From Halanaerobiales bacterium (lineage in GTDB: Bacteria; Bacillota; Halanaerobiia; Halanaerobiales; JADQBU01): 24,000 nt of DNA. Positions 372 to 19,023 of the stretch are shown here, piece after piece. Position numbers and translations under genes: made by a program. Below the pieces are notes generated by a model. That model was not told where the DNA came from. It saw nothing but the letters and a program-made list of their open reading frames with translations, and did not search any database. Location of the stretch: the NCBI GenBank assembly GCA_016278435.1, contig JADQBU010000416.1, positions 1 to 24,000 on the forward strand. Direction: 5' to 3'. Within the stretch, counting starts at the first letter, position 1. Each line of letters begins with the position of its first letter.

Positions 372-1529
372 TTAAATTGCATGATATTCACTTTCCAGTA
401 CAGTTTCACCAACATTTTTAAGTCCACCAATTATCCTGCTGATAACTTTGTTGGCTCCTTCTATCGATAATCCAGGTAATAATATAAGGTATTGATTTTT
501 ATTCCAGCGAGTTATGATATCTCCCTTGCGTAAGTTGTTCTTCAGGGCATTAGCCATAAATTCCATTTTACTGTTTATATCATCATTACCCTTAAAGGTC
601 AGCGAACAGATTATAGCCGGAATATGATTTCTTTCCCGTTTCCTCTCCTCAAGTTTATATAACATCCTGAAAATATCAGGCTCACAGAAGAAAGCGCCAT
701 CAACTTTCTGCCTGTTTTTTAATTGCTCCTGTATATTTAAGATACCTTCTGAATCTTCAGATGTTTCACCGTGAATTTTTTTATAAAGGTCCTGCATAGC
801 CGGTAGTGGTCTAATTTCCAGTTCCCGGTAAAATAATGTAGATGCATATTCATAGTGAGCCCGGGCCTGGGCAGTTTTGCCTTCCTCCAGTAATGCCTCC
901 AGATAACCAAGGTGAATTTTTTCTTCCAGTGGTTCAATCTGAAAAGCCGTACGGCAAAGTGTTATTATTTCAGAATTTTTGTTAAATTGTTTTAAAAGTT
1001 CAATCTGCTGTAAAATACTTTCTGTATATAACCAGTGGTAATTATTTCTAAAAGATATTACCCAGTTATCATATGGTAACTCCATTAAATAATCACCTTT
1101 ATAAATATTAAAAGCATTCCTGTATATATCAATCGCCTGTTGAGGAGCAGTCTCAATATTATTGTAAGCCTGTTGACAGAGATTTTCAAATTCTTCAACA
1201 TCCAGCCAGAATTTTGAATTTATATTAAACCCATATCCACCCTGACTACTATTTATGTAAGGTATGGTAGATTTGAAATCTTCTGGTATTAGTAATTTTC
1301 TCAAGCGGTAGACCAGATTGGTAAGGGCATGTTTAGGGTCACTGAAGTCCATTTCCGGGAATAAATTCTCCATGATTACCTCGGGGTGAATATTCCTACC
1401 ACGATTTGAGATTAAATATTTAAAAAGAATCCAGGGCTTGTCATTAGTTTTTTCAGCCTCCAGTAATGAGTCTTTATTTCTTTTAATCATAAATTGGCCC
1501 AGTGTGTAAATTTCTAATACATTATCCAA
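372..1529 (-). CDS. SARP/BTAD-family transcriptional activator (OmpR-type winged helix + BTAD/TPR) fused to a C-terminal degenerate GGDEF-like domain
   Basis: 385-aa ORF with TTG start and GGGGGGTGA SD 7 nt upstream. The N-terminus LEIYTLGQFMI...LFKYLISNRGRNIHPEVIMENLFP...LTNLVYRLRKLL matches the SARP wHTH pattern. WLDVEEFENL...AIDIYRNAFNIYKGDYL...EIRPLPAMQDLYKKI matches BTAD. The C-terminus RKGDIITRWNKNQYLILLPGLSIEGANKVISRI aligns to RxxD-x5-GGDEF-AILLP of diguanylate cyclases, with GGDEF replaced by NKNQY. Confidence 0.8.
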   Translation of the reverse strand: MDNVLEIYTLGQFMIKRNKDSLLEAEKTNDKPWILFKYLISNRGRNIHPEVIMENLFPEMDFSDPKHALTNLVYRLRKLLIPEDFKSTIPYINSSQGGYGFNINSKFWLDVEEFENLCQQAYNNIETAPQQAIDIYRNAFNIYKGDYLMELPYDNWVISFRNNYHWLYTESILQQIELLKQFNKNSEIITLCRTAFQIEPLEEKIHLGYLEALLEEGKTAQARAHYEYASTLFYRELEIRPLPAMQDLYKKIHGETSEDSEGILNIQEQLKNRQKVDGAFFCEPDIFRMLYKLEERKRERNHIPAIICSLTFKGNDDINSKMEFMANALKNNLRKGDIITRWNKNQYLILLPGLSIEGANKVISRIIGGLKNVGETVLESEYHAI

Positions 1530-1564: not shown

Positions 1565-1635
1565 AAAAATTAACCCCTTCTTTAGTAGAATTATATCACA
1601 AAGCAAGGACCTGGTCTACTATTTTAAGGGGTTAA
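1565..1635 (-). terminator. Long imperfect hairpin plus T-run downstream of the 166-aa repeat-protein gene
   Basis: TTAACCCCTT (1570..1579) pairs with AAGGGGTTAA (1626..1635). Inner TAGTAGA/TCTACTA arms extend the stem. On the minus strand it is followed by TTTTTAT (complement of 1563..1569). It sits between the stop at 1679 and the regulator start at 1529. Confidence 0.4.
1590..1618 (-). promoter_or_regulatory. Candidate sigma-A promoter for the SARP-like regulator (extended -10)
   Basis: Minus strand reads TAGACC (1618..1613), 17 nt spacer, TGaTATAAT (TG 1598..1597, TATAAT 1595..1590). It lies inside the loop of the hairpin above. The region is AT-rich, so a chance match is possible. Confidence 0.3.
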
Positions 1636-1678
1636 ATCAATTTATATTTTGAATTTTTTTAACATTCTATTGTATATT

Positions 1679-2179
1679 TCAGGAATTATTGTCAGTAAGT
1701 ACATTTTCTGGACTTGAAAAAATATCAATTGAAGTTCTAATACTTACATTGGACTGCAAGATATTGCCATTACCCGAACTCATCTGTACCGTTGTTATAC
1801 CTGTAGCATTGGTAAAAGCATTGCCTCCAATAGTATTATACCTGCTAACATATGTATCATGTGATGAAACATTACTTATAGAAGCCCTGATCTCCTGTGT
1901 TTTTACATCATCGGGAATTACATCAGAACTACTATACCCTTCAAAACTACTGTTAGCCTGCATAATATTACCATTCCCCGCCACCATCTGAACCATGAGT
2001 CCTCCAGTAACATCCTCAAGAGCAGTATCACTGACTTGATTAAACTGGCTTGTATAAGTCTCATAACTTTCAACATTAGATAGCTCAGCTATCATATCCT
2101 GTGGAGCTGCTGCAACTGAAAAAGCCAACGATACAACTACCAGTAGACACATTACAATAATGGAAATTAGTTTTTTCAC
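1679..2179 (-). CDS. Secreted 2-repeat N/Q/G/S-rich protein (repeat-family paralogue A), candidate fibre/amyloid subunit
   Basis: 166 aa with GTG start and AAGGAGGC SD 8 nt upstream. Signal peptide MKKLISIIVMCLLVVVSLAFSVAA|AP. Two ~45-aa repeats: SNVESYETYTSQFNQVSDTALEDVTGGLMVQMVAGNGNIMQANSS (nt 1946..2080) and SNVSSHDTYVSRYNTIGGNAFTNATGITTVQMSSGNGNILQSNVS (nt 1742..1876). Confidence 0.85.
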   Translation of the reverse strand: MKKLISIIVMCLLVVVSLAFSVAAAPQDMIAELSNVESYETYTSQFNQVSDTALEDVTGGLMVQMVAGNGNIMQANSSFEGYSSSDVIPDDVKTQEIRASISNVSSHDTYVSRYNTIGGNAFTNATGITTVQMSSGNGNILQSNVSIRTSIDIFSSPENVLTDNNS

Positions 2180-2270
2180 GGCTAAATGCCTCCTTTTTCT
2201 GCTGGTTTTTTATTTTAAAAAAATTATTATTACTCTAATAATAAAACATGTCCTTTTATTTATCTTCTTC

Positions 2271-2299
2271 ATTATACCATAGGATATGGGAAAAATCTA
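2271..2299 (-). promoter_or_regulatory. Candidate promoter for the 166-aa repeat-protein gene (extended -10)
   Basis: Minus strand reads TAGATT (2299..2294), 17 nt spacer, TGgTATAAT (TG 2279..2278, TATAAT 2276..2271), about 90 nt upstream of the GTG at 2179. Confidence 0.4.
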
Positions 2300-2325
2300 C
2301 ACTTTTTCGAAAATAATTTATAATT

Positions 2326-2365
2326 TGTGATTAATATGTGATTTAATTATGATGTAAACATGAAT
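2326..2365 (+). promoter_or_regulatory. Four heptamer direct repeats at exact 11-bp periodicity (candidate SARP binding array) in the divergent intergenic region
   Basis: TGTGATT (2326..2332), TGTGATT (2337..2343), TATGATG (2348..2354), CATGAAT (2359..2365). A further TGTGATT lies at 2420..2426. The last phased repeat is followed by 8 nt and then TATTTT (2374..2379). Confidence 0.4.
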
Positions 2366-2543
2366 ATTCCCAGTATTTTACTGTTATTTATTGTAATATT
2401 ATCTTATTTCCTCATGCTGTGTGATTGAATTTTATTCAAAATTAAATTAATATGAGATTTTTAGATGATAACCCTGAGATGTTTTCTTGTTACACTTATA
2501 ATAAGTTGAAGAATTAAAGATACCCGGAAGAGGGTGAACATAG

Positions 2544-2777
2544 ATGAATGTCCAGAATGGTATTTGTCCAATAAATGGCCTGCGGTGTAATTCCACCTTT
2601 AATATACGTGTAATATATCGTGATAATACCAGCTGGCAGGGAGAAATACAGTGGCTGGAAGGTAAACAAACCAGATACTTCCGCAGTCTCCTGGAGATGA
2701 TCATGTTGATGAATGAGGCCATGAAAACCACTGACCAACCACAGGCTAACTTTGCTTTTAGAAACTGGGATTCATAA
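2544..2777 (+). CDS. Small cytoplasmic hypothetical protein (77 aa) with an SWQG...FRS motif
   Basis: Best of three overlapping ORFs here: AGAGGGTG SD about 8 nt before the ATG, and same strand as the downstream cluster. The motif FNIRVIYRDNTSWQGEIQWLEGKQTRYFRSLLEMIMLMNEAM resembles small uncharacterised clostridial proteins (from memory). No signal peptide. Confidence 0.5.
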   Translation: MNVQNGICPINGLRCNSTFNIRVIYRDNTSWQGEIQWLEGKQTRYFRSLLEMIMLMNEAMKTTDQPQANFAFRNWDS

Positions 2778-2921
2778 ATCATAAGTATATAAAAATCATA
2801 AAAACTTTCTTTTTAAGGAGGTGAGGGGCCGGTAAGAGATGTCCGATTGGAATTAAAAAGTAATTTTCTCTGTCACTGTATTAAGTTAAAACATCTTTTA
2901 AAAACAAAAGGAGTGTATTAA

Positions 2922-3611
2922 ATGAAAAAATTATTGATTCTGGGTGTAATGGTTATGTTTGTACTGGCTCTGGCTCTGCCAGTAGCAGCCAGATCTGATG
3001 GTGACCTTGATGCCACAATAGGTGCAATGGAAGTAGTTGCTGTTTATAGTAATGAAGAAGCCCTTTTCATTGATAAAACTGACTTAGGGTTCGGAGTTGG
3101 AATTGGAGTTCACGGTGATTATTTGAGCGGTTTCCTGGTAGGTGGAGGATATTATCATGACTTTGACCTCGGTTACTGGGAAGATACATTTGCCCTGTTG
3201 AAAGTTGAGGCAACCGGCCCGGTCAGTAAAGAAGATTACGGAATCAGATTTGATAAAATTGATGACGAAGCCTTCGAAAATGCAACCGGTGTTACAACAG
3301 TTCAGATGTCTGCCGGTAATGGTAACATTCTCCAGTCTGCACAAAATGTTCTAGTCTTGAATGATGTTTGTGATGCAGACCTGCAAGAAGTTAATGCTAA
3401 AATTTATAAAACCGTATCTTTTGACGATTACGACAAGCGTTTTGACAAAATTTCTGGAGAAGCTTTCCAGAATGCAACAGGTATTACCACTGTTCAGATG
3501 TCTTCCGGTAACGGCAATATTCTCCAGGCCGGTCTCAATGTTCAGGTCGAACTCCCGAATTTTGTATCTGATGTCGACGGAATGGGAGATTACACAGTAG
3601 TTACCTATTAA
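2922..3611 (+). CDS. Secreted 2-repeat N/Q/G/S-rich protein (repeat-family paralogue B), candidate major fibre/amyloid subunit
   Basis: 229 aa with AAAGGAG SD. Signal peptide MKKLLILGVMVMFVLALALPVAA|RSD. Gly/aromatic-rich N-terminal region LGFGVGIGVHGDYLSGFLVGGGYYHDFDLGYW. Two repeats: DYGIRFDKIDDEAFENATGVTTVQMSAGNGNILQSAQNV (3234..3350) and DDYDKRFDKISGEAFQNATGITTVQMSSGNGNILQAGLNV (3423..3542). Confidence 0.9.
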   Translation: MKKLLILGVMVMFVLALALPVAARSDGDLDATIGAMEVVAVYSNEEALFIDKTDLGFGVGIGVHGDYLSGFLVGGGYYHDFDLGYWEDTFALLKVEATGPVSKEDYGIRFDKIDDEAFENATGVTTVQMSAGNGNILQSAQNVLVLNDVCDADLQEVNAKIYKTVSFDDYDKRFDKISGEAFQNATGITTVQMSSGNGNILQAGLNVQVELPNFVSDVDGMGDYTVVTY

Positions 3612-3644
3612 TATAAGTATTTTTAAACTCTTGGGTAAAGTGAA

Positions 3645-3670
3645 CAGGCGGGGTTAAACTGCCCCGCCTG
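3645..3670 (+). terminator. GC-rich 9-bp hairpin just after the subunit gene (attenuator or RNA-stabilising stem; no clear U-tract)
   Basis: CAGGCGGGG (3645..3653), 8-nt loop, CCCCGCCTG (3662..3670). Followed by AATCATAAAAAT, which is not a T-run. Confidence 0.3.
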
Positions 3671-3703
3671 AATCATAAAAATACCTGTTGGGAGTGACAT
3701 GAT

Positions 3704-4390
3704 ATGAAGAGTATTAAAGTTGTTTTCCTGTTTATACTAATATTACTAATAACCAGTTATGTTGCCAGTGCAGGGACGGTAACCTTTAAAGTATCTACTA
3801 TGGGGTTACGTATGAATACAGAGATTGAAAGTTATACAGAAATTCAATTTCGAGGAGTAGTAAAACAGAAATTAGATATTAGCTGTGGTTCAGCTGCCCT
3901 GGCTACAATCTTCCAGTATTATTATGGAGACCCGGTAGAAGAAGAAGCTATCATTGAAAGTATGGTCAATGGCAGAACTAAAGAAGAAATTATAGCAGGT
4001 GAAGGTTTTTCATTACTGGAACTTAAAACCGCTGCGGAAAAATGGGGTTATTCAGCTTTTGGTCTCAGCGGTTCCCTTGCTGCCCTGGCCCAGCTCAGTA
4101 TTCCCTCAATAGTCCTTTTGGAAACCGGTGATATTCCACACTTTGTAGTAGTCAGGAAAGTTCTGAAGGACAGCATTCTTGTTGCCGATCCTGCAATGGG
4201 TAATATAACTATTTCAAAATCAGATTTTATTAAGCAGTGGAATGGCATTCTGCTGGCAATAGAAGGCAAACAGCAACCAGTTTCAAATTATCAGAAATAT
4301 ATGCCACTGACTGCTCCGACCAGGCTAGAGGTTAGTAGATTCAACAGAAATAACTGGAGAGTAATACCCTTTATTCCATCAGAATTTTAA
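3704..4390 (+). CDS. Stand-alone, signal-peptide-bearing C39-family cysteine peptidase (FapD-like architecture)
   Basis: 228 aa. Signal peptide MKSIKVVFLFILILLITSYVASA|GT. C39 pattern VVKQKLDISCGSAALATIFQYYYG with Q55 and C61 (TGT 3884..3886). IPHFVVV with H146 (CAC 4139..4141). ILVADP with D162. No fused ABC-transporter domains. Confidence 0.85.
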   Translation: MKSIKVVFLFILILLITSYVASAGTVTFKVSTMGLRMNTEIESYTEIQFRGVVKQKLDISCGSAALATIFQYYYGDPVEEEAIIESMVNGRTKEEIIAGEGFSLLELKTAAEKWGYSAFGLSGSLAALAQLSIPSIVLLETGDIPHFVVVRKVLKDSILVADPAMGNITISKSDFIKQWNGILLAIEGKQQPVSNYQKYMPLTAPTRLEVSRFNRNNWRVIPFIPSEF

Positions 4391-4465
4391 TTTATTTTAA
4401 ACTTCTTAAATTTTAGATTAGAAATTTAAACATTTTATTCAAGTTGAGTAAAAGGAGGAAAAATA

Positions 4466-4855
4466 ATGAAAAATATTTTCAAGTTTTCAACTTTAATTTT
4501 AGTCTCAGTGTTTATGTTTATCCTGGGGGTTTCTGCTCTGGCACTTGATTTGCCGGCTGACTTTACAACACTCTCAAATGATGAACTATCTGAAGTTAGT
4601 GGTCAGGGGCGTTTTTTTATCAGAAATATCGATAATCTCGATTTTGATGCTGATATTGATAGTGCACAATTCACCTATAGTGATATATCCGATGGTGCTT
4701 TTAAGGATGCCTCAGGTTTAATTTCCGTAATTCAGGTTCCCGGAGATCGTAACTGGATTTGTGTCTACCTTGATCTTGATCTAAGTATAATAAATACTTA
4801 TGGTACTACTACAATAAATCTTTCAGACCAGCAATTCGAGTTACCTCCACTTTAA
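4466..4855 (+). CDS. Small secreted protein with one degenerate copy of the cluster repeat
   Basis: 129 aa with AAAGGAGGA SD. Signal peptide MKNIFKFSTLILVSVFMFILGVSALA|LD. QFTYSDISDGAFKDASGLISVIQVPGDRNWICVYLDLDL (4667..4783) aligns to the AFxNATGxTTVQMSSGNGNILQ repeat. Confidence 0.75.
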   Translation: MKNIFKFSTLILVSVFMFILGVSALALDLPADFTTLSNDELSEVSGQGRFFIRNIDNLDFDADIDSAQFTYSDISDGAFKDASGLISVIQVPGDRNWICVYLDLDLSIINTYGTTTINLSDQQFELPPL

Positions 4856-4868
4856 AGTTTTCTAAACT

Positions 4869-4909
4869 GGTAATCCCCCTTTTTACCGGGGGGATTACCT
4901 CTATTTTAA
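4869..4909 (+). terminator. Rho-independent terminator-like hairpin
   Basis: GGTAATCCCCC (4869..4879), 9-nt loop, GGGGGATTACC (4889..4899), then TCTATTTTAAG. Confidence 0.6.
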
Positions 4910-4989
4910 GTAAATATTTAATGATATTTTTTTTGCAGGAATTTTCCATTTTTTTGCGAACTATATATATACCAATATAAGAAAGGGGT

Positions 4990-5865
4990 ATGAAAATGAT
5001 TAAAAAAACTGCAATTATTTTCTGTCTAGCTATTATGTTAATACTGGTACCTCAGATGGCCGGAGCCAAAGTGCCAGTCGAGTTACAGTGGGATGTTACA
5101 TATACCCATAGTTCCAACAACCAGCTTTTATTAAATGGTTATACTGTTTATAATGTTATAACTGTTGGTGAAATTGAAGTTACTAAAGTCAAAAGAGACA
5201 TTATAATGCCTTCCTTAATTGTTAGATGCGGCTCTCCGGAGAAAAATATTGAATTTATTATTCCTTACAGTTACCGGCGGGATTATGTTTTAGATCGTGA
5301 TAACATTAATGGAGATGAATATGAAGAATCCACTGTTGATGGTATGGGACTGGGAGATATCAGGATCAATTTGAATGCAGCAGCACCTATAAAAAATACC
5401 ACTGTAACCCTGGGAGTTAAAACTACAACAGGAGTCAGTGATGTAGGTGATGATGAAATTCCACTGGGAAGCGGTCACCTGGGAATCAGAGCTGGAGTGT
5501 CCCATATGATGCCTCTGGACCCGGTAGTGTTATTTGGAAGTGCTAATTACTACTGGAATCTGGAAAATGATGCTGTTGACCCCGGAGATACTATTCAGTA
5601 TTCATTAGGAATGGCCTATGCCCTTAACCCCAGATTTTCCATTAATGCCAGGCTAGAACAAGCCGTTACCACACAAACTAGAGAGGATGGTGTAAGACAG
5701 CCTGAAACAGGTGTAAATTCCGCTATGTTCTATGTGGGCGGTAGCTTTGCTGATGGGGGAAGCACTTCATCTTATGACCTGTCAGTGGGGATTGGTATGA
5801 CAGAAGATGCTCCTGATATGTCAATCCAGTTCAGCCGTCCCATCGAAATTAAAAGACAGAATTAA
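4990..5865 (+). CDS. Outer-membrane beta-barrel protein, 'MetA-pathway/transporter'-like (PF13557-like) family
   Basis: 291 aa. Signal peptide MKMIKKTAIIFCLAIMLILVPQMAGA|KV. Alternating-hydrophobic strands. Motifs GMGLGDIRINL, LGVKTTTGVSD and IPLGSGHLGIRAG are typical of this barrel family (from memory). The start may be the second ATG (4996), which has better SD spacing. The C-terminus ...IQFSRPIEIKRQN lacks a terminal aromatic residue. Confidence 0.7.
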   Translation: MKMIKKTAIIFCLAIMLILVPQMAGAKVPVELQWDVTYTHSSNNQLLLNGYTVYNVITVGEIEVTKVKRDIIMPSLIVRCGSPEKNIEFIIPYSYRRDYVLDRDNINGDEYEESTVDGMGLGDIRINLNAAAPIKNTTVTLGVKTTTGVSDVGDDEIPLGSGHLGIRAGVSHMMPLDPVVLFGSANYYWNLENDAVDPGDTIQYSLGMAYALNPRFSINARLEQAVTTQTREDGVRQPETGVNSAMFYVGGSFADGGSTSSYDLSVGIGMTEDAPDMSIQFSRPIEIKRQN

Positions 5866-7952: not shown

Positions 7953-8204
7953 TTGAAAAATATGAGTATCGCTAATAAACTTAATCTTATTATTATCAGC
8001 ATGTCCGTAAAACAGAAGGTTTTAGACAATATCGGCCAGGACTTCATTGAGATGAATATATATGAAGAATATATTGATTATCTAATGAAGGTTAATCTAA
8101 ATATACTAGATTCAAAATCTTCTAAGGATGTTTATAAATCCTTAATTGACGATTATATAAAGGGTAATCTAAGAAAAGCAGAATTTATTTTAAAGAATCT
8201 ATAA
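7953..8204 (+). CDS. Hypothetical small protein (83 aa)
   Basis: TTG start with AGGAGG SD 8 nt upstream (alternative ATG at 7962). No recognisable motif. Confidence 0.5.
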   Translation: MKNMSIANKLNLIIISMSVKQKVLDNIGQDFIEMNIYEEYIDYLMKVNLNILDSKSSKDVYKSLIDDYIKGNLRKAEFILKNL

Positions 8205-9284
8205 TATCTTTTTAACCCTATCTCTGCCAGAGTTCTTTGCTAGATAGAGGGCATTATCAGCTCGGGTTAAGAAAATTTTTATACTATCATTGTTTTGAAG
8301 TTGGGTTACACCCAGGCTGACTGTAATTTTATTTTTCACAGGTGGTATTCTTAGCTGAGCTATTCTTTTTCTAATCCTCTCTGCAACCTTTATGACATCT
8401 ATCAAATTAGTTTCTGTTAAAAGTATAGCAAACTCCTCTCCCCCTATTCTGGCTGCCATATCCTCTTTTCTTGTTTCCTCCTTAAAAACTTTACCTACTT
8501 CTATTAAAACTTCATCTCCAACATTATGTCCATAGGAGTCATTAATATTTTTAAATTTATCTATATCGGCCATAACCAGATAAATCGAATGTGATTTTCT
8601 CTGGGCCAGAGAATACATTCTTTCCAGATATTCCATAAAGTATCTCCGGTTGAAAATTCCTGTTAATTCATCTGTCTTTATCATCTTTTTCATCTTAAGA
8701 TGAAGTGCTTGTAATTCTTTTGATTCCTTCATTGCTCTGAGAATATAGTATGTAATTAATGTATAGGCCGGTATTGTAAACAATTGAATTGCCAAACGGA
8801 GCACCATGTTATCAAGTAGTGGGACACCATAAGCCCTGTTAAGTACCATTGGGATAGCCAGAGCTGAAACCAGTAAATGAGAAACAGTAATCGAAATAAA
8901 AACTGCTTTTAAACTCATTTTATTGAACATATAATTGTATATATAGCCAGCCATAAATCCCCTTAAAATCGTAATCAGGGTAAAGACAAACATATACTCC
9001 AGGTCACTATGCCAGATAAAAAAAGAAATTAGATCAACCAGCCCACCTATAACTCCCCCCCATAGGGGCCCCAGTAAGATACCTCCAAAAATGATGACAG
9101 GAGGACGCAGACTCAGTCTTGCTGCTTCTTCCAGAGGATATATGGAAAACATTATACTGTTACCAGGGTTATCAAAAAATACAGCTATACAGACCAGAAT
9201 AAGTAATACTTTTAAGGTATAAATCCAGTTAAAATTTCCCGGACGAACATCATTATTTTTCGTTTTTGTACCAATAAATAACAT
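8199..9284 (-). CDS. Membrane-bound diguanylate cyclase: N-terminal ~6-TM domain resembling ECF-transporter S components, plus GGDEF domain (GGEEF, I-site RKED)
   Basis: 361 aa. RKEDMAARIGGEEFAILL (GGEEF = nt 8430..8444), preceded by DELTGIFNRRYF and ADIDKFKNINDSYGHNVGDEVL. The N-terminal RPPVIIFGGILLGPLWGGVIGGLVDLISFFIW is ECF S-component-like (from memory). Confidence 0.9.
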   Translation of the reverse strand: MLFIGTKTKNNDVRPGNFNWIYTLKVLLILVCIAVFFDNPGNSIMFSIYPLEEAARLSLRPPVIIFGGILLGPLWGGVIGGLVDLISFFIWHSDLEYMFVFTLITILRGFMAGYIYNYMFNKMSLKAVFISITVSHLLVSALAIPMVLNRAYGVPLLDNMVLRLAIQLFTIPAYTLITYYILRAMKESKELQALHLKMKKMIKTDELTGIFNRRYFMEYLERMYSLAQRKSHSIYLVMADIDKFKNINDSYGHNVGDEVLIEVGKVFKEETRKEDMAARIGGEEFAILLTETNLIDVIKVAERIRKRIAQLRIPPVKNKITVSLGVTQLQNNDSIKIFLTRADNALYLAKNSGRDRVKKIL

Positions 9285-9572: not shown

Positions 9573-9818
9573 TTTCTTCTCTCCCTTGAACTTAATTTAT
9601 ATAATGTTAATTCTACATAATTACTGAAATTCCTTTTTTTAGGTTATTATTTACAAGACACATTACAAATTCATTAGGACTTAAGTACTATTCTACTAAA
9701 AAACTCCATTTACCGCAAATAAAATTTCTTTTAACACCTGGTTAATGAAGGTCTTTAGGTCTTTATAACGAATATTGGTAATATAAGTATATTTACTGGA
9801 ATAAACGGGGTGTTCTGT

Positions 9819-11321
9819 ATGAAATTTAAAAAGGAAACCAGGATTACTTTTTTATATATAATAATCGGACTCGGCTGGATATTCTTTTCCGATTATTTTC
9901 TATTATTATTTTTTAAAGACCAGAACATGATTAACAGGTTTCAATCTTATAAAGGAATATTCTACGTTTTAATTACTGCCTATCTATTTTATCTTATTCT
10001 CCATAGAACCTTCAAAAATATCAGAATGCATCAACGAAAACTAAAATCAAGTCATGAATTACTGGCCTTAGATAATGAGCAATTTAGAATGTTAAATAAG
10101 AAAATCAGCAAAGCTAATCAGGAATTACAGAGACAGAAAGAAAAATTAAGTGAAAGTTATCAATTGCTTGAGGCAGATAACGAAGAATTTAAAGAACTCA
10201 ATAAAGAGTTGGAAGAATCTTACAACGAAATTAATGAGCTGGCAAATAATATAGAGAAAATGATCAACATAACTTCAGGGTTGAACAGTTTATCGGTAGA
10301 TAATACGGACCTTTTTCTTTCTGATCTCTTAAATACAGCTCTAAAATTAATTGATAAAGCTAATCAGGGGGCAATCGCCAGAATAATCGATGATAATTTA
10401 GTTTTTATTGATTCAGTTGACTATGAGATTGAAAAATTAAATCAACTTAACTTGAAAAAAAGTTTCGTAAATAAAATTAATGGTATTAAAACATTAACTG
10501 AGCTTTTTAAAGATGATATCTCAGCATTTGAAAACAGTAAATTTTATGAGAGATATCAAAAACTATTGCGAGAAATAAATGATTCTATAATTGTAAGTTT
10601 TAATAATGGTCAGGAAAAAGCAGGGGTTATCTGTTTATTGATAGATAAGCGTCACAAACAAAAATTTGATGAAAATAGCCATAGAACCATGTCAGCTTTC
10701 AGCAGTCTGGCCAGTGTTTTTTTCAAGATTCAAAAATATCATCAAGTTGAGGAAGAATTCCAGGAAGAATTAATCGTTGCTATTACCGGTTTTCTTGAAT
10801 TACATGATACATATACAGATGGGCATTCCAGGGAAGTTGCTGAATTATCAAGAAAAATCGCCAGAGAAATGAACCTTTCTGACCAGGAAGTAGAAAAAGC
10901 GTACTGGGCCGGTATGATCCATGATATCGGTAAAATCTTAATTCCTGAAACTATTTTAGTTAAAAATGGTCCTTTAACCAGTGTAGAATATAATAAGATA
11001 AAAAAACACCCCATATGGGGTTATCAGGCTTTAAAACATTCTGGTAGGTTGAAGGAAATAGCAGAAATAATTCTATACCATCATGAACGCTGGGATGGAA
11101 GTGGTTATCCTTATGGATTAAAAGAAGATGAAATACCTTTGATAGCCCGGATTTTATGTGTGGCTGATAGCTGGAATGCTATGCGCTCTAATCGACCTTA
11201 CCGCTCACATCTACCTATAAATAAAGCTTTAGAAGAACTTAGAGATAATAATGGAAGTCAATTTTGTCCAGAAGTAGTAGAGGCCTTCTTTGCAATAATG
11301 GGAGAACAGATTGCAATTTAA
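9819..11321 (+). CDS. HD-GYP domain c-di-GMP phosphodiesterase with N-terminal TM segments, coiled coil and a sensor-like domain
   Basis: HDTYTDGHSREVA...GMIHDIGKILIP...HHERWDGSGYPYGL...ADSWNAMRSNRPYR. The ORF track starts at GTG 9810, but ATG 9819 has the better SD (GGGGTG). Confidence 0.9.
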   Translation: MKFKKETRITFLYIIIGLGWIFFSDYFLLLFFKDQNMINRFQSYKGIFYVLITAYLFYLILHRTFKNIRMHQRKLKSSHELLALDNEQFRMLNKKISKANQELQRQKEKLSESYQLLEADNEEFKELNKELEESYNEINELANNIEKMINITSGLNSLSVDNTDLFLSDLLNTALKLIDKANQGAIARIIDDNLVFIDSVDYEIEKLNQLNLKKSFVNKINGIKTLTELFKDDISAFENSKFYERYQKLLREINDSIIVSFNNGQEKAGVICLLIDKRHKQKFDENSHRTMSAFSSLASVFFKIQKYHQVEEEFQEELIVAITGFLELHDTYTDGHSREVAELSRKIAREMNLSDQEVEKAYWAGMIHDIGKILIPETILVKNGPLTSVEYNKIKKHPIWGYQALKHSGRLKEIAEIILYHHERWDGSGYPYGLKEDEIPLIARILCVADSWNAMRSNRPYRSHLPINKALEELRDNNGSQFCPEVVEAFFAIMGEQIAI

Positions 11322-11572: not shown

Positions 11573-12649
11573 TTATAATTGTTGTGAGTTATCACTTGCA
11601 CGCTTTACTATCGATATTATTAACACAATCCCTGGTATCATAATTTGAAAGGGAAAAGAATAGATAAAATAGTTTTCGACAGACCAGCGTATTGTTTCAA
11701 ATGTACTGTCATACAACCAGATTGCTACTGTTATTACTAAAGCGGAGACCGGTAGTACAAACAGCTTATATCTGTTTAGATTAAAAACCTGAACCAATCC
11801 CTGAGTTGCCGCATAAATACAGATAGAAACCTTGCACATGCCTCCTATTAAGTAGTTTACAGCTACCACAGCATCAAGATTATACCCGGGTATTAGTCTG
11901 GTGGTGATTGTTGAAGGAAAAATTGTTTCGAATAACATATCAGCTCCCAGGATAAAGAAATTCCTTAGCAAGATTATTAATAAAACCGTACCCATAACAA
12001 ACAAGGCCAGAAATGATGTCGTTAGGAGATCTTTTTTCCTATTCAAGGCTGGAAAGACCATCAAAAATATTACCAGTTCACCAAAGGGAAACCCCAGCAG
12101 AACAATTGATGTTTTTATAATCGGACCCAGTCCCCTGACAAGCATCGGTTTATAACTGTTAATATCAAAAAATTGAAATAAAAATGCCGTAACCAGAATT
12201 ACCATCACCGGGATAATCGGAATGAAGAATTCTGCTGTTCTGGCCATAACCTCCAGCCCGCTGCGCACCGCATAAGCTATGGTTATTATCATTATTATAA
12301 TTGTAAAAGTAATTGGGGTCTCGGGATAATCTGTTATGACGATATATTCTCCAAAATTTCTGATAACGATGGCGGCCAGGTGCATAAAATACCAGATATA
12401 TAATAGGGCAATAGCTTTACCGATAATCCTTCCGAAGTTTTTCTCCAGGATACCGATTAGTGTCTCCCCGGAATTGAGGTTAGCAATCAATACATAACCG
12501 CCTAATAAAAAAAAACCCCCCACCCAGCTGGCCAGATAAGCTATCCAGCAGTCCTGTTTAGCTGCCGACGCCGGGTTTATTACAACCCCAAACAAAAAAC
12601 CCATTATCAAAACAGCTAGTTGAAATCTGGATATTTTCTCGACTAACAC
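11573..12649 (-). CDS. Spore germination receptor B subunit (GerAB/GerKB-family permease-like)
   Basis: 358 aa with about 10 TM segments. The N-terminus ISRFQLAVLIMGFLFG... is typical of Ger(x)B. It is the last gene of a gerA/gerC operon. Confidence 0.85.
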   Translation of the reverse strand: MLVEKISRFQLAVLIMGFLFGVVINPASAAKQDCWIAYLASWVGGFFLLGGYVLIANLNSGETLIGILEKNFGRIIGKAIALLYIWYFMHLAAIVIRNFGEYIVITDYPETPITFTIIIMIITIAYAVRSGLEVMARTAEFFIPIIPVMVILVTAFLFQFFDINSYKPMLVRGLGPIIKTSIVLLGFPFGELVIFLMVFPALNRKKDLLTTSFLALFVMGTVLLIILLRNFFILGADMLFETIFPSTITTRLIPGYNLDAVVAVNYLIGGMCKVSICIYAATQGLVQVFNLNRYKLFVLPVSALVITVAIWLYDSTFETIRWSVENYFIYSFPFQIMIPGIVLIISIVKRASDNSQQL

Positions 12650-12654
12650 ATGTA

Positions 12655-12876
12655 TTACCTCCCTGGCAGCAAACCAATAATCTTCTCAATTAATACAGCC
12701 GGGCTTTGAGGTGCCCTGTCCAGTATTAAGAGGATACCAATAGTTAAACCGCAAAGCATAATAATTGAATATAAGATTACTGCCACCGGTTTATTGTTTA
12801 ACCCCAGTAACTCCTTTAAATCTAACAAGGTAATTAAGATAAATACAGCTATTAATAGAAATAACATATTAATCAC
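12655..12876 (-). CDS. Small two-TM membrane protein within the ger operon (possible germinant-receptor D-type subunit)
   Basis: 73 aa with two hydrophobic helices. Its ATGA overlaps the gerC stop by 4 nt, and it ends 6 nt before the gerB start. Confidence 0.6.
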   Translation of the reverse strand: MINMLFLLIAVFILITLLDLKELLGLNNKPVAVILYSIIMLCGLTIGILLILDRAPQSPAVLIEKIIGLLPGR

Positions 12877-14138
12877 TTCCCAGCATCTGTATAAGGCTGC
12901 CCGGATTTTTTAATCAAAGATGAACTAGTAGTTGTCCACTGAACCTTAATTTCCACCGGAGCATTACTGAAGACCTCTTCCCAGTTATCCTTTATTTTCT
13001 CCCAGTACTCATAATAATCACCGTAGACTATTTTTACAAAGCGGAAGAAATCACTCTGGTAATCCTGTTGGGCTTTGTCAACTGCATCCTGGATATTCTT
13101 TTTAATCACAGCCTTCACCCTACTTTCCATCTCCTTAACCATTTCCGGTGTTGTCAGATCACCTTTCCCCTGCTGGTCGGCCATTCTTCCCGAAGCTTTA
13201 ACCTCTATCATTAACTTTAACTCATCATCCCTGACCTCTCCCTTAATATTCCCGCTGGATTTAACTATTTCAAAGGCCACCTTTTTACCCACTTCAAGGG
13301 GATTGTCGACGTTAATAATCCCGCTTTGCACCTCATCGATGGCAAAAATCAATCCCCTGGTTTCAAAGGGATCCAGATAGCCTTTCAGTTTACCCTTTTT
13401 TATTACAGCAGTTCCCTCAATCTTTAGATCCTTGATTTCCAGTTTGCCTTCATCCTGTTTTTTACCTCCACTATCTTCTTGGGAATCTTTATTTTCCTGT
13501 TTCTGAATAACCCCGATGGCCAGTGAATTGCCCCGGATACGAATGCGCCTGACGGCATCAAAAAATGTGGTCTTTTTTATCTTGGCCAGGGCATCATTGT
13601 TTTTAAGTATTGACCTAATATGCAAGGCCGGTATATTCTCTAACTCACTCTGGGCCTGAAGAACCTCCCGGGCGGTAATCCCCCGGGTAATTAAAAGGTC
13701 GGCCATCCTTTCTGTCTCTTTATCCCTTTCAAATAAATCGAAGATATCTGTAACCCCTTCCCTGGCAACCTCTTCCCCGATAATCATTAACTGTACATGG
13801 CTGAAATAAGCCTTTCTGTTTAAGGTTGTCAACTGATTCCTGATGGCTGTGAAAACCGTCTCTCCGGTGGAGGAATAAACCCAGACCGGGTCTTCCGTAC
13901 TACCCTGACTTATAGCTTTAATAGTACCCGGTTTGACCATCTGCAGGGTTAACAAAATATCTCCCCTATCTGTCCTGTCAAACCCCACGGCGGTGACTAT
14001 GGCTATTTCTGATAAATCAACATTATTCCAGCAACCTGATAAAAGAAAAGTCAAACTGAACAGTATAATAAACAAAATGATCTGCTTGTTTTTTATTTGG
14101 ATTTTTGTTTTAACGATTTTTATCATCTTTAACACCAC
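12873..14138 (-). CDS. Spore germination receptor C subunit lipoprotein (Ger(x)C family)
   Basis: Lipobox FLLSGC followed by WNNVDLSEIAIVTAVGFDR, typical of GerAC/GerKC. The true start may be ATG 14126. Confidence 0.9.
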   Translation of the reverse strand: MVLKMIKIVKTKIQIKNKQIILFIILFSLTFLLSGCWNNVDLSEIAIVTAVGFDRTDRGDILLTLQMVKPGTIKAISQGSTEDPVWVYSSTGETVFTAIRNQLTTLNRKAYFSHVQLMIIGEEVAREGVTDIFDLFERDKETERMADLLITRGITAREVLQAQSELENIPALHIRSILKNNDALAKIKKTTFFDAVRRIRIRGNSLAIGVIQKQENKDSQEDSGGKKQDEGKLEIKDLKIEGTAVIKKGKLKGYLDPFETRGLIFAIDEVQSGIINVDNPLEVGKKVAFEIVKSSGNIKGEVRDDELKLMIEVKASGRMADQQGKGDLTTPEMVKEMESRVKAVIKKNIQDAVDKAQQDYQSDFFRFVKIVYGDYYEYWEKIKDNWEEVFSNAPVEIKVQWTTTSSSLIKKSGQPYTDAGK

Positions 14139-14211
14139 TTTGTCTTGACCGGCTTAACTTAACGGATTGCTTTATCAAGCAATGATATAGATTACATGGT
14201 TGCTCATTTTT

Positions 14212-15810
14212 TTAGTCCTCTTTTGTCTTGATATCCCTCTTCATCCGGTAGCCCTTTTCAATGTAGTCAAAGTGGTCTACCATCAATGAACGTGGTCTAA
14301 ACCACATTGCCCAGATGGGCACCCGGATAAAGGTGTCTTTTAAGTCCATACCATAGAGGGGAGAAAAGGGGGCCATATACGGGATGCCAAAGGATCTTAA
14401 AGTACACATGTGAATATAGATAATAATATAGGCCAGCATTATCCCCATATATCCCATTATATTGGCAGCGATAAGCAAAAAAATACGGATAATGGGAATT
14501 GTCCCTCCCAGCGGCGGCAAAATAAAACTTGTAATGGCTGTTATAGCAGTCACCATTATCACCGGATTGCTGGCAATCCCTGCCTCGACTGCAGCCTGCC
14601 CCAGTACCAATGCCCCCACAATACTGATTGCCTGACCAATTGGACGGGGCATTCTCACTCCCGCTTCTCGTAACAGCTCATAGGTAACGCCCATCAACAG
14701 GGTTTCGGTAAACACTGAAAAGGGAATCCCCTCTCTTGACTGAGCGATAGTTAACATCAATTTAAAGGGAATCACGTCCTGATGGAAGGCTACCGAAGCC
14801 ACATAATAAGCCGGCAGCGAACTGGTTATCAATAAAGCCAGCAACCTGAGCCAGCGTACCAGGGTGGAAAAATAGGGACGGGAATAATAGTCCTCAGCTG
14901 AAATAAGCGATTCGATAAATAGATGGGGCATTGTCAGCACAAAGGGGGTTCCGTCACACATAACTGCTGCTCTGCCTTCCAGAATCTTACCGGCGACTAC
15001 ATCCGGTTTCTCACTATTAGCTATTGTCTGAAATATTGAAAAGGGTGCATCTTCAATGAATTCCTCAAGATAACCCGATTCTAAGATAGCATCTGTTTTA
15101 ATCTTTTCCAGGCGTCTTTTCAAAGTTCGGACAATGTCCTCATGGATTAAACCTTTAATATAACAGATGCAGATATCTGTGTTTGTCTGTTTGCCCAGAG
15201 TCATCATTTCGAATTTAAGATTGGGATTTTTAATCTTCCTTCTTAACAGAGCACTGTTTGTCCTGAGGGTCTCGGTAAACCCTTCCCTGGGTCCACGGAC
15301 AACCACCTCTGTATCCGGTTCTTCCACACCCCTGGTTTCCCAGCCCCAGGTTCCCACTTTCAGGGCAACCCTTTTCCCGTCCACAAATATTACAGTATCT
15401 CCTGTTAAAATTAAGTTGACTGCCGGCTTAAGCCGGGTAACATCAGATATTTCACTGACACTTAATACTTTTTCTTTGAGGTAATTTATAACATCTATAT
15501 AGTTATTATCTCCCGGTATATCTGTTTCGCAGGTAGACTCCATCATAATTGGTTTTATAACATCCCGATTAATCAGGTCCTTGTCAACTAACCCGTCCAG
15601 ATAGGCAATAACCAACCGGGTATGGTTTTTTGCTGGCAGCACAACCTCTCGAAGATTAAAATCACTGCATTCGCTGAAGATCTCTAGTAAAAGTGTTTTA
15701 ACCTTATCAATACTTTCCGGCAACAATTCTTCAGCCTGGTTCTTTTCTTTATTATCGTTCTGCCGCTTTAATTTTAAAAACTCGAATATCCGCAAAAATT
15801 TTTTAAACAC
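14212..15810 (-). CDS. Spore germination receptor A subunit (GerAA/GerKA family)
   Basis: 532 aa with GTG start. A soluble N-terminal domain is followed by C-terminal TM helices. Motifs DGLVDKDLINRDVIKPI, VRGPREGFTE.L..N..LLRRKI and ESGYLEEFIED are typical of the family. Confidence 0.9.
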   Translation of the reverse strand: MFKKFLRIFEFLKLKRQNDNKEKNQAEELLPESIDKVKTLLLEIFSECSDFNLREVVLPAKNHTRLVIAYLDGLVDKDLINRDVIKPIMMESTCETDIPGDNNYIDVINYLKEKVLSVSEISDVTRLKPAVNLILTGDTVIFVDGKRVALKVGTWGWETRGVEEPDTEVVVRGPREGFTETLRTNSALLRRKIKNPNLKFEMMTLGKQTNTDICICYIKGLIHEDIVRTLKRRLEKIKTDAILESGYLEEFIEDAPFSIFQTIANSEKPDVVAGKILEGRAAVMCDGTPFVLTMPHLFIESLISAEDYYSRPYFSTLVRWLRLLALLITSSLPAYYVASVAFHQDVIPFKLMLTIAQSREGIPFSVFTETLLMGVTYELLREAGVRMPRPIGQAISIVGALVLGQAAVEAGIASNPVIMVTAITAITSFILPPLGGTIPIIRIFLLIAANIMGYMGIMLAYIIIYIHMCTLRSFGIPYMAPFSPLYGMDLKDTFIRVPIWAMWFRPRSLMVDHFDYIEKGYRMKRDIKTKED

Positions 15811-16747: not shown

Positions 16748-17923
16748 TTATTGTTTTTTAGATCCAGTAACTAAATACATGGTCTTCATTTTCTTCTCAG
16801 CTTCAATGAGCATCTCTTCAGTAACATGTGAATAAGTGTCAATGGTAACAGTAATTGAAGAATGACCGAGGATCTGTTGCAGTATTTTTATAGAACCGCC
16901 ATTCTGTAAAAATAATGTTGAAAAGGTATGGCGGGTATCGTGGAATCTTATCTCTGGAAGTCCGGCTTCTTTAATGACCCTTTTAAACTCTCTAAACAAG
17001 TTCCTGGGGTCTATAGGATTTCCTATTTTATTGCTTCCAACTAGATCATTTTTTTTATTATATGCTTCCCCTAATGCCAGTTTGTTTTCCCCTTGCTTTA
17101 TTTTATGCCTTTTTAATTCTGTCACAACATCATCTGTTATGGGTATGGTCCTATTTCCCGCAGCAGTTTTAACTTTCTTAAATATCAAGCCCTGATCTGT
17201 ACGGACAAGTTGCCTATTAACCTCGATTCTTCTTTTATCAAGTGAAATATCCTTCCACTTTAATCCCAATAATTCCCCTCTTCTCATACCAGTATTTAAT
17301 GCTAGATAATGGAGTATAAAGCAATCATACCCCCTGGCAGTCTCCAGAAATTTGTTAACCTGACTTTTATCCCAGGTATGCAACTGCTTCTCATCCTGTT
17401 TTTTGGGGACTTCAACAGCCTTGCAGACATTGTTAGTTATCAATCGTTCTTTAATGGCCTGCTCAAGGGCTGCGTGTAATGTCTGATAAATATATTTAAC
17501 AGTCCTGGGGGATAAACCACCATCTCCATCTATCCTGCCTTCTTCCAGTTTATAATTGAGCAATTCCTGGACCTGCCGGGTTTTCAGTTCTTTCAGCTTT
17601 AAATCACCAATTTCTGGCTTTAAATGATTCCTGATCATAACTTTATAGTTATTGTAAGTGCTATATGCTAATGATGATTTGCGGCCTTCAATCCAACTGT
17701 CTAGCCATTCAGATAACTTCATATTACTTGGTTCAACATAGGTCCCATCAAATAACTCCTTCTTTAAATCGGTCATTTTTCGGGCTACTTCCTTGCGTTC
17801 CTTACCATATATATACTTCCGTTTCGGTGCTCCTGTCTTGGGATTTACTCCAATAGTGACTGCGCCCATCCACCGGCCATCATTCCGTTTAACAATAGTT
17901 CCTTCCCCATTACCTCTGGCCAT
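16748..17923 (-). CDS. int: Tyrosine recombinase, phage-type integrase
   Basis: 391 aa. N-terminus GEGTIVKRNDGRWMGAVTIG...RKYIYGKERKEVARKM is typical of Firmicute phage integrases. The catalytic region has GMRRGELLGLKW, RFHDTRHTFSTLFLQNG, LGHSSITVTIDTYSHV (R...HxxR...Y). Confidence 0.95.
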   Translation of the reverse strand: MARGNGEGTIVKRNDGRWMGAVTIGVNPKTGAPKRKYIYGKERKEVARKMTDLKKELFDGTYVEPSNMKLSEWLDSWIEGRKSSLAYSTYNNYKVMIRNHLKPEIGDLKLKELKTRQVQELLNYKLEEGRIDGDGGLSPRTVKYIYQTLHAALEQAIKERLITNNVCKAVEVPKKQDEKQLHTWDKSQVNKFLETARGYDCFILHYLALNTGMRRGELLGLKWKDISLDKRRIEVNRQLVRTDQGLIFKKVKTAAGNRTIPITDDVVTELKRHKIKQGENKLALGEAYNKKNDLVGSNKIGNPIDPRNLFREFKRVIKEAGLPEIRFHDTRHTFSTLFLQNGGSIKILQQILGHSSITVTIDTYSHVTEEMLIEAEKKMKTMYLVTGSKKQ

Positions 17924-18036
17924 GATTAATGCTCCTTTCTATATATTAACAAGATTAGATTTTAAAGTGGAATTATTTAACTAACTGGCCCGGGCTACAA
18001 AACCCGGGCAGAATGTGTTATAATGAAATTGGTAGG

Positions 18037-18285
18037 TCAGCCGATAGCTTCATATAATTTTTTGAAGTTATCAGGCTGGCTTTTGTATTCTTCAATAACT
18101 TCATTCCTTCTTTCCTCAGGTAAATTACTATTCACAACTAATAACTGCCGGTCTTCATCTTCATTTATAAAAAAACCATCAACTGAATCTAATTCGGCAT
18201 CCACAACTGTAAGAGATCCTACTGTATTAACTTTATTAACAAAACTTAAACTTTCATATTTACTCTTGGGTTTAATACCCATCAT
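18037..18285 (-). CDS. Hypothetical prophage protein (82 aa, acidic)
   Basis: Its start overlaps the upstream stop (TAATG at 18285), suggesting translational coupling. Same strand as int. No recognised motif. Confidence 0.5.
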   Translation of the reverse strand: MMGIKPKSKYESLSFVNKVNTVGSLTVVDAELDSVDGFFINEDEDRQLLVVNSNLPEERRNEVIEEYKSQPDNFKKLYEAIG

Positions 18286-18557
18286 TATAAATCCCCTCTT
18301 TCAGGTTTTTGATTGCAGTTTTCCTTCTTAATAGACAAATCAACTTGCGTGCTCTGTTGAACCATCCTATAACCACCATTAGGGTCATTTTGGACTGAAT
18401 AATTACCTGTTAAATTTACCTTTTTCCAGGATTCTTCACCCGCTAAACGGATGAAGAATCCCTGATTATCCTGATAAGTTTCTATGACCTCTTTATTTAA
18501 CCCCAGGACAGATTCAAATGTTTGGTGCTCTGATAGCTTCACTTGCTTACACTCCAT
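18285..18557 (-). CDS. Hypothetical prophage protein (90 aa)
   Basis: ORF on the int strand, coupled to the following ORF. No recognised motif. Confidence 0.5.
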   Translation of the reverse strand: MECKQVKLSEHQTFESVLGLNKEVIETYQDNQGFFIRLAGEESWKKVNLTGNYSVQNDPNGGYRMVQQSTQVDLSIKKENCNQKPERGDL

Positions 18558-18575
18558 TTCTACTTAATGGAATAT

Positions 18576-18878
18576 CTAACCGACTCTAACCTGATAAATA
18601 TTACTAAGCTCTCCCTGAACTTCATAACCGTAATACCATGCAAGAAACCAGTCTCTCGGAATTACACGTTTTCCTCCAATCTTACGATTAGGTATTGCCC
18701 TTTCGGGATCAGGCTCAGGATAGTCAAACTTGACAAGCATGTCGCTTATTGTTGTCGATCCGAAAGGCAATAACTTCTCCAAATCCTTTGGCGTTAATGA
18801 AAACGGCAAGCTTTTTCTGGACTCCTCAATACATTCCTTAAGAACCTCTTTTGTATTTGGTAAAAGTTCATTTTTCAT
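18576..18878 (-). CDS. Putative excisionase-type/MerR-like HTH DNA-binding protein
   Basis: 100 aa. LTPKDLEKLLPFGSTTISDML...IPNRKIGGKRVIPRDWFLAW resembles the HTH_17/excisionase pattern (L..g.s..ti..l....IP..kiG.r.vi.r..f..W). Its position in the lysogeny module fits this call. Confidence 0.45.
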   Translation of the reverse strand: MKNELLPNTKEVLKECIEESRKSLPFSLTPKDLEKLLPFGSTTISDMLVKFDYPEPDPERAIPNRKIGGKRVIPRDWFLAWYYGYEVQGELSNIYQVRVG

Positions 18879-19002: not shown

Positions 19003-19023
19003 TATATTAAGGGAAGTGATCTA

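Follow-up and report, generated by a model that had tools for sequence, protein, structure and literature searches.

The stretch of DNA considered here, called the window in what follows, comprises 24,000 nucleotides (nt) of a Halanaerobiales bacterium (assembly GCA_016278435.1, contig JADQBU010000416.1, positions 1 to 24,000 of the forward strand). Near its left end, on the minus strand, lies a gene for a protein, hereafter the regulator, in which a winged helix and a BTAD domain of the kind found in SARP activators are followed by a short remnant of a GGDEF domain, i.e., the domain of diguanylate cyclases. The gene is divergent from a presumed operon for Fap-type amyloid proteins, and between the two lie a gene for a small protein and an array of tandem heptamers. 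Taken together, these features, whose coordinates are collected in Table 1, make the regulator a strong candidate for a new kind of gene switch in Firmicutes, one controlled by cyclic di-GMP (c-di-GMP).

A SARP module joined to a GGDEF-derived domain

The open reading frame of the regulator is uninterrupted, and the sequence GGGGGTG stands 8-9 nt 5' of its TTG start codon. The possibility that the gene is frameshifted or truncated can be dismissed, as the orthologues in Halanaerobiales are equal in length (381-385 amino acids) and have the same end point. The AlphaFold2 model of the protein, computed with 120 homologues as input, has a mean predicted local distance difference test (pLDDT) score of 90.3.

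The N-terminal part is an AfsR/EmbR-like module, as shown by computation at the level of both sequence and fold. Its first 250 residues superpose in the model on AfsR (8k60; Foldseek E 9e-11, template modelling (TM) score 0.78), and EmbR (2ff4) is matched likewise. The Pfam model Trans_reg_C, corresponding to the OmpR-type winged helix, finds residues 33-87 of the regulator at 19.7 bits, below its cut-off of 26.2 bits; it exceeds that cut-off (30.3 bits) in a paralogue from the same genome that is linked to a CsgG gene, and it is precomputed for most homologues. The BTAD domain (PF03704) is recognized at residues 109-252 with 63.7 bits against a cut-off of 22.1 bits (E 3.2e-17). An earlier note on this DNA had described the protein as a SARP/BTAD activator fused to a degenerate GGDEF domain, and the BTAD match, the superposition on AfsR and the GGDEF results given next all agree with that description.

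The C-terminal domain, about 105 residues long, is a truncated GGDEF domain with the order of elements b-a-b-a-b-b-a-b. On the single sequence, the Pfam GGDEF model aligns its positions 62-115 (of 161) with residues 325-378 at 23.0 bits (E 7e-5), and the domain scores 24.3 bits in a six-frame search of the genome with the GGDEF profile. When a profile made from the C-terminal domains of 21 relatives is compared with the PDB, solved cyclases are reached at E 1e-10, namely DgcR (6zxm), SiaD (7e6g) and a T. maritima protein (4urg). In addition, residues 280-384 of the AlphaFold2 model superpose on the GGDEF domain of 6khu with a TM score of 0.72 and a root-mean-square deviation of 2.3 Å over 111 columns, the deviations from GGDEF domains ranging from 2.3 to 2.7 Å. 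Because the Pfam match, the family profile and the superposition coincide, the resemblance to GGDEF domains is taken as homology rather than chance likeness. The alignment with hidden Markov models (HMMs) that the earlier note had proposed as a check is thus favorable when the family profile is used, the single sequence falling just short of the Pfam cut-off.

Catalysis has been lost from this domain. It ends about 38 residues past the GGDEF position, with no counterpart of profile positions ~116-161, the final third of the fold, and most of the loop that follows the first strand and carries the metal- and GTP-binding residues is gone in the clade of the regulator. At the former GG(D/E)EF the protein has N343-K-N-Q-Y347, and this position reads xxxQ[YF] across the homologues; GG[DE]EF is absent from every member checked (118 homologues and 84 members derived from genomes), so that the loss pointed out in the earlier note extends to the whole set. 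Because of these losses, the regulator has neither the catalytic motif nor a complete GTP-binding fold: its C-terminal domain is derived from GGDEF and cannot be a cyclase.

The residues that persist are those of the inhibitory site (I-site). In the cyclase DgcR, two subunits hold c-di-GMP, one through R206xxD209 and the other through R163 on helix alpha0', and R237 is the equivalent of PleD R390 (PMC8041772). The ligand is contacted in PleD by R359, D362 and R390 (PMC7288161), and in WspR by R242 and R198, whose alanine variants R198A and R242A purify free of nucleotide (PMC2270323). In the HMM alignment, residues R39, R80, D83 and R111 of the family, which are R300, R334, D337 and R365 of the regulator, pair with positions 183, 226, 229 and 257 of the 6zxm chain; the index of this chain is the native number plus 20, and therefore all four coincide with DgcR R163, R206, D209 and R237. 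The RxxD motif stands five residues before the former GGDEF, accompanied by both accessory arginines. For nt 489..530 (residues 334-347) the earlier note had aligned RKGD-IITRW-NKNQY with RKED-MAARI-GGEEF of the cyclase encoded at 8199..9284 of the window, and on re-reading its coordinates and the common offset of five residues are correct.

Conservation of these residues was counted in two independent sets, one of 120 homologues with identities down to 23% and one of ~83-84 members read from GTDB genomes. The retention of RxxD noted for the one protein proves general: R334 is present in 118/118 homologues and 82/83 genome-derived members, and D337 in 118/118 and 83/83. For the accessory arginines the counts are 118/119 and 79/84 (R300) and 112/117 and 74/82 (R365), and the four are the best-conserved polar residues of the domain. 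From these alignments, the domain appears to have shed what catalysis needs and to have kept exactly the residues for binding, and for cross-linking by, dimeric c-di-GMP.

The architecture is not peculiar to this genome. A search of 1.84 billion representative proteins with the profile of the C-terminal domain returned 2,167 clusters (formed at 50% identity) with a threshold of E <= 1e-10 and 110 with E <= 1e-30; among the 150 best matches, almost every one is a protein of ~400 residues with the domain at its extreme C-terminus, or a fragment that ends in it. The search for the same architecture in other genomes, which the earlier note had suggested, thus leads to a large family of ~2,000 such clusters that almost always has this layout. 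Its members occur in Halanaerobiales, Halobacteroidaceae, Syntrophomonadaceae, Dethiobacteria, Clostridium, Alkaliphilus, Oscillospiraceae, Lachnospiraceae and others, and databases name them “BTAD domain-containing putative transcriptional regulator”, “AfsR/SARP family” or, wrongly, “diguanylate cyclase”. The fusion was not described in any paper retrieved by a literature search that combined BTAD or SARP with GGDEF, c-di-GMP, TasA or sipW, in line with the earlier note, whose author knew of no characterized example. A SARP activator and a degenerate-GGDEF I-site receptor are both known kinds of protein; the regulator is a candidate for their combination, which has not been seen before.

On the SARP side, the regulator shares with AfsR (8k60, 8hvr), EmbR (2ff4) and ActII-ORF4/DnrI the OmpR-type winged helix followed by BTAD. 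It differs in that identity to these actinomycete proteins is only ~20%, that the hosts of the family are Firmicutes, and that the presumed target genes are those of biofilm fibres instead of antibiotic clusters. The C-terminal extension is also different: it is NB-ARC/TPR in AfsR and FHA in EmbR, small SARPs lack one, and the regulator has the dead GGDEF domain. On the receptor side, PelD of P. aeruginosa, PopA of Caulobacter and the BcsE GIL domain of E. coli likewise have a dead GGDEF-type domain with RxxD as the presumed ligand site, and PelD and BcsE are given as c-di-GMP receptors (PMC10519070). The RKGD of the regulator is an RxGD, as in BcsE. No DNA-binding domain is attached to any of the three, whose outputs are polysaccharide synthases or proteolysis adaptors, and no sequence likeness of the regulator domain to them was seen beyond that of the GGDEF superfamily. 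The PelD-type parallel drawn in the earlier note consequently stands as regards a dead GGDEF domain with RxxD, but not as regards its extent: PelD and PopA have the full-length fold, and the domain of the regulator lacks the last ~45 profile positions.

Heptamer arrays and the genes behind them

Direct repeats of a heptamer at an 11-bp phase, ending ~8-9 bp before the -10 element, are the operator design of SARPs such as AfsR, ActII-ORF4 and DnrI, and the intergenic region between the regulator and the divergent genes carries this signature. Four heptamers start at 2326, 2337, 2348 and 2359, and the array spans 2326..2365. With no mismatch allowed, TGTGATT-N4-TGTGATT occurs in the 3.0-Mb assembly at this array only. 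Tandems of TGTGAyT are also found, in the divergent intergenic region and oriented toward the fap genes, at seven orthologous loci (L007 and L025, two each, L027, L073 and L099).

A test that assumes no motif was made by counting heptamers repeated with at most one mismatch at spacings of 7-16 bp and comparing the counts with those of shuffled sequences. In the 36 regions between a regulator and a small-protein gene, the spacing of 11 bp gave 176 repeats, against 22-50 for the other spacings and 23±7 after shuffling (z≈22); it is the sole peak in the range, and 31 of the 36 regions contribute to it. The eight Fap-type regions gave 62 such repeats, compared with 14±6 when shuffled. The arrays of the various loci, built of TGTGACT, TGTAACy, TATAACy and so on, stop ~8-9 nt short of a -10-like hexamer, just as SARP operators do. 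Upstream of the regulator genes themselves the 11-bp peak is absent, and no clear array of the TGTGATT type was seen in the DNA upstream of the CsgG-linked paralogue; the paralogues probably recognize other heptamers. Farther along the same intergenic region of the window there is a second, weaker array, which in a direct repeat (D1) has 79% identity to 2330-2353.

The only other near-perfect heptamer tandem of the genome, TGTGATT-aatg-TGTGATA-attt-TATGATT, lies on contig C43 (L015, 1462..1530 and 1674..2977), between an L-lactate dehydrogenase gene (ldh) and an exopolysaccharide operon encoding a CpsB-type PHP phosphatase and a Wza-like exporter. It was not counted as regulon evidence because it is aimed at ldh and stands ~28 nt from the start codon, without room for a promoter. 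This ldh (L015 ~1370, minus strand) has an in-frame TAG where its homologues would have Leu (…GLAREIV*IDINREK…), and is either a pseudogene or the result of an assembly error.

The gene that follows the array in the window encodes a cytoplasmic protein of 77 amino acids with a good Shine-Dalgarno sequence and no signal peptide. It has no match in Pfam or NCBIfam, and a word-indexed homologue search with the open reading frame returned only itself; a new family of ~68 residues was recovered with an HMM on the related loci, which had been gathered with an alignment of 27 closer sequences. The consensus is F.vRv.frqn..WQG.i.Wl...k...FRS.LEm..L..eA...rsW, and matches occur in 38 of ~79 related loci; for 33 of 78 regulators the gene is at most 1.5 kb downstream on the same strand. 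Often there are two tandem genes of two subtypes (A/B), or a fused protein of two domains. AlphaFold2 gives a three-stranded sheet and a helix (b3-a) with a pLDDT of 74, and Foldseek found no significant match for this model in the PDB (best E 0.47). Since no other gene follows the heptamer arrays as constantly, the small-protein gene is a probable direct target of the regulator, and its product is possibly a partner. The earlier note had set the regulator directly beside a repeat-protein cluster, and this adjacency holds; the most conserved direct target appears to be the small-protein gene and not the repeat-protein genes as such.

Table 1. Features of the regulator locus in the window, with the small-protein genes of two other loci for comparison
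Feature	Position (nt)	Strand	Description	Basis
Regulator gene	372..1529	-	385 amino acids, TTG start; winged helix-turn-helix, BTAD, degenerate mini-GGDEF	translation, Pfam, AlphaFold2
DNA-binding domain, residues 1-109	1203..1529	-	OmpR-type winged helix	weak Pfam match, Foldseek, F13 and R75 conserved
BTAD domain, residues 110-252	774..1202	-	TPR-like, helical	Pfam PF03704; helices in AlphaFold2 model
Mini-GGDEF domain, residues 280-385	375..692	-	truncated, catalytically dead	profile, Foldseek, AlphaFold2
R300	630..632	-	counterpart of secondary I-site Arg (DgcR R163, helix alpha0')	aligned to 6zxm chain 183
R334-K-G-D337	519..530	-	primary I-site RxxD motif	aligned with DgcR R206/D209
N343-K-N-Q-Y347	489..503	-	at former GG(D/E)EF	aligned to GGEEF of DgcR
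R365	435..437	-	counterpart of PleD R390 / DgcR R237, third primary I-site residue	aligned to 6zxm chain 257
Promoter-like site of regulator	1590..1618	-	TAGACC-17-TGnTATAAT	consensus match, 10/12 and extended -10
FapB/C-like secreted repeat protein gene	1679..2179	-	upstream of regulator, same strand	weak NCBIfam FapB; L007 orthologues PF27129 FapBC
Putative operator	2326..2379	+	TGTGATT, TGTGATT, TATGATG, CATGAAT at 11-bp phase, then 8 nt, -10-like TATTTT	sequence
Second array	2420..2470	+	TGTGATT at 2420; weaker TGAGATT 2453, GATGATA 2464; 5' of TATAAT 2497-2502	sequence, promoter scan
Small-protein gene	2544..2777	+	77-amino-acid cytoplasmic protein, ~68-residue family	HMM; recurrent neighbour of regulators
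Presumed regulated operon	2922..5865	+	divergent from regulator	NCBIfam FapD, FapF, FapB
FapB/C-like gene	2922-3611	+	in the operon	NCBIfam FapB E 9e-5
FapD-like gene	3704-4390	+	C39 peptidase	NCBIfam FapD E 2e-38
Small secreted protein gene	4466-4855	+		
FapF-like gene	4990-5865	+	barrel	NCBIfam FapF E 1e-19
Small-protein examples, other loci	L009 8901-9375; L011 9475-9965			

Fibre systems and c-di-GMP enzymes around the family

The Fap genes of the window recur in Halanaerobiales: contig L007 has two Fap clusters in tandem, each with one regulator. The genome of the regulator contains two further paralogues, one placed after a CsgG gene and genes for N/Q/Y-rich secreted proteins, the other beside the gene of an ice-binding-like lipoprotein. 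In the larger clade, the genes that come after the small proteins encode a fusion of a receiver domain and a signal peptidase (18 loci), TasA/camelysin-like proteins (36 genes in 15 loci) and DUF5305 proteins, and other loci of the family carry secretins, sortases or type IV pilus ATPases. These neighbours, i.e., Fap, CsgG, TasA/SipW-like proteins and pili, are systems for extracellular fibres and adhesion, a usual output of c-di-GMP.

Two of these neighbourhoods have features of their own. The CsgG-linked paralogue (394 amino acids, RKGD kept) is encoded last in an operon on contig C78 (L005 5666..9286), after a 282-residue N/G/S-rich secreted protein, a 117-residue N/Y/Q-rich secreted protein (NYNYYFNYYNEGENN) and a CsgG-family lipoprotein (Pfam E 2e-33), an arrangement suggestive of a module for curli-like secretion in a diderm spore-former. 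The receiver domain fused to an S26 (SipW-like) signal peptidase stands just before the TasA/camelysin-like genes at L057 9440..10423 and at 17 more loci; if it is a signal peptidase controlled by phosphorylation, it would be unusual.

The proposed ligand can be made by the host. The genome of the regulator has 12 genes with a full GGDEF domain and one with PilZ, and real cyclases are present in nine of ten other genomes that bear the family. Within the window, 8199..9284 (minus strand) encodes a membrane cyclase with an ECF-S-like transmembrane domain, a GGDEF domain (E 2e-46) and an RKED I-site of its own, and 9810..11321 (plus strand) encodes a protein of the HD-GYP type (HD_5, E 3e-41); c-di-GMP might be made and degraded locally by this pair, which lies 7-9 kb from the regulator. 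An Rfam scan of the window found no c-di-GMP riboswitch and no other RNA family, and hence no alternative riboswitch input there.

A GerA-type germinant receptor operon, with A, C and B subunits by the appearance of their sequences, occupies 11573..15810 (minus strand) of the window, and its presence together with the FapF-like outer-membrane barrel fits an endospore-forming, diderm member of the Halanaerobiales. From 16748 to 24000 there is a prophage remnant or other integrated element, with a tyrosine integrase (16748..17923), small genes of the Cro/C1 type and a tape-measure-like protein of more than 1,300 residues (20013..23999) that extends beyond the window.

A proposed c-di-GMP switch and its alternatives

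The reading that we favor, with a probability of about 0.58, is that the regulator is a SARP-type activator controlled by c-di-GMP through a C-terminal, receptor-only remnant of a diguanylate cyclase. The earlier note had inferred that binding of c-di-GMP could gate the activator, and all of the computational checks it had suggested turned out favorable to that candidate role. As the concentration of c-di-GMP rises, supplied by the 12 genuine cyclases of the genome, that of 8199..9284 included, a dimer of the nucleotide would link two protomers, contacting RxxD and R365 on the first and R300 on the second, after the model of the back-to-back cross-linked, product-inhibited GGDEF dimers of DgcR, PleD and WspR. 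The paired protomers would then fill adjacent heptamers of the 2326..2365 array in tandem and recruit RNA polymerase, and the outcome would be transcription of the small-protein gene and of the divergent Fap amyloid operon.

This scheme borrows from several known systems. All the I-site residues of DgcR (6zxm), PleD (2v0n) and WspR (3bre), i.e., RxxD, the arginine of helix alpha3 and that of helix alpha0', align with the regulator; in the cyclases the cross-link turns off catalysis, whereas in the regulator, which has no catalysis, it would control the assembly of a transcription factor. The same logic, c-di-GMP pairing DNA-binding protomers at genes for development or matrix, applies to BldD of Streptomyces (PMC4151990) and to VpsT of Vibrio. 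Their folds and binding motifs are unrelated to those of the regulator, and there is no homology. The BldD motif is RxD-X8-RxxD on a unique C-terminal domain, and that of VpsT is W[F/L/M][T/S]R.

Several points weigh against the proposal. The Pfam score of the single sequence, 23.0 bits, is just below the cut-off of 23.8 bits, and, compared with every GGDEF domain known to bind c-di-GMP at the I-site, that of the regulator is short by about one third, since PelD, PopA and the cyclases are full-length. R365 is replaced by Q, N or K in one subclade, R300 by S, P or Q in 5 of 84 members, and in the DgcR crystal R237, the equivalent of R365, makes no contact with the ligand (PMC8041772). The RxxD motif and the arginines could be an inheritance from a cyclase ancestor, retained for folding or for contact with a protein. 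At the array of the window the gap between heptamer and hexamer is 8 nt and the hexamer, TATTTT, is weak, with a better TATAAT 120 nt downstream. One metagenome-assembled genome of 1.1 Mb bears the family and has no detectable cyclase. Finally, the sign of the regulation, activation, and the dimerization step are both drawn purely by analogy.

The truncation is also what gives some weight to an explanation without any ligand, in which the dead GGDEF domain binds no nucleotide and serves as a dimerization module or scaffold, its Arg and Asp residues forming salt bridges or touching a partner such as the 68-residue protein. A small-protein gene, often an A/B pair, accompanies 33 of the 78 regulators, and therefore a protein ligand is at hand; moreover, other residues specific to the family (G278, C282 and F287) are equally conserved. 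We nevertheless regard this explanation as unlikely, given that the conserved polar residues match four I-site contacts of cyclases one for one instead of falling on arbitrary surface positions, and that the Fap-type orthologues (L007, L025, L027) keep them with no small-protein gene nearby. Less credible, and in our view distinctly improbable, is a regulator that does bind c-di-GMP but is locked by it in an inactive, cross-linked state, so that it would act at low c-di-GMP. Genes for biofilm fibres and adhesion, which are the presumed regulated genes here, are typically induced at high c-di-GMP, and SARP operators need two protomers in tandem, whose pairing a cross-link would favor. This alternative draws its appeal from DgcR, PleD and WspR, where the cross-link between primary and secondary I-sites is inhibitory because the domains are immobilized (PMC8041772, PMC7288161, PMC2270323).

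The identity of the nucleotide may be questioned as well, since specificity cannot be read from the sequence and nucleotides other than c-di-GMP are known ligands of GGDEF-family domains: the PDB lists a PleD structure with ppGpp (9g85), cyclic GMP-AMP (cGAMP) is made by Hypr GGDEF proteins, and the remnant of the I-site might accept pGpG, cGAMP, (p)ppGpp or GTP. The elements that bind GTP in the A-site are deleted in the family, the conserved set is the one that recognizes intercalated c-di-GMP in three solved cyclases (PMC7288161, PMC2270323, PMC8041772), and canonical GGDEF cyclases abound in the host genomes, all of which leaves another guanine nucleotide with a very low likelihood. As for an active but divergent diguanylate cyclase, the idea can point to the name that NCBI gives to the relative P0022, “diguanylate cyclase”, and it has practically no chance of being correct, considering the universal absence of GG(D/E)EF in the 84 + 118 members, the reduced metal- and GTP-binding loop and the missing C-terminal third of the fold.

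A broader form of the proposal would extend c-di-GMP control to the entire Firmicutes class of ~2,000 clusters (50% identity), as unrecognized activators in which the cross-link assembles SARP protomers on heptamers phased at 11 bp and which, with the 68-residue beta3-alpha partner, would be a master switch for Fap- and curli-like amyloids, TasA-like fibres and pili. We consider it an even bet.

To our knowledge, Firmicutes have few protein receptors for c-di-GMP and, riboswitches aside, very few transcription factors that respond to it. The window is convenient in this respect, as no more than 2 kb of it contains the residues predicted to bind the ligand together with the putative operator (2326..2365) and the promoter of the target, and the finding already corrects the “diguanylate cyclase” names that some members bear in databases. 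If binding of c-di-GMP is true, a family of ~2,000 sequence clusters would acquire a function, and the coupling of c-di-GMP to the production of amyloids, TasA-like fibres and pili in spore-forming anaerobes, from Halanaerobiales, Syntrophomonadaceae and Dethiobacteria to gut Clostridia, would be explained. It would also mean that the product-inhibition site of a cyclase can survive by itself, sensing a ligand from within a minimal domain of ~105 residues, and the regulator would be the first case in which this site is reused as the sensor of a DNA-binding protein.

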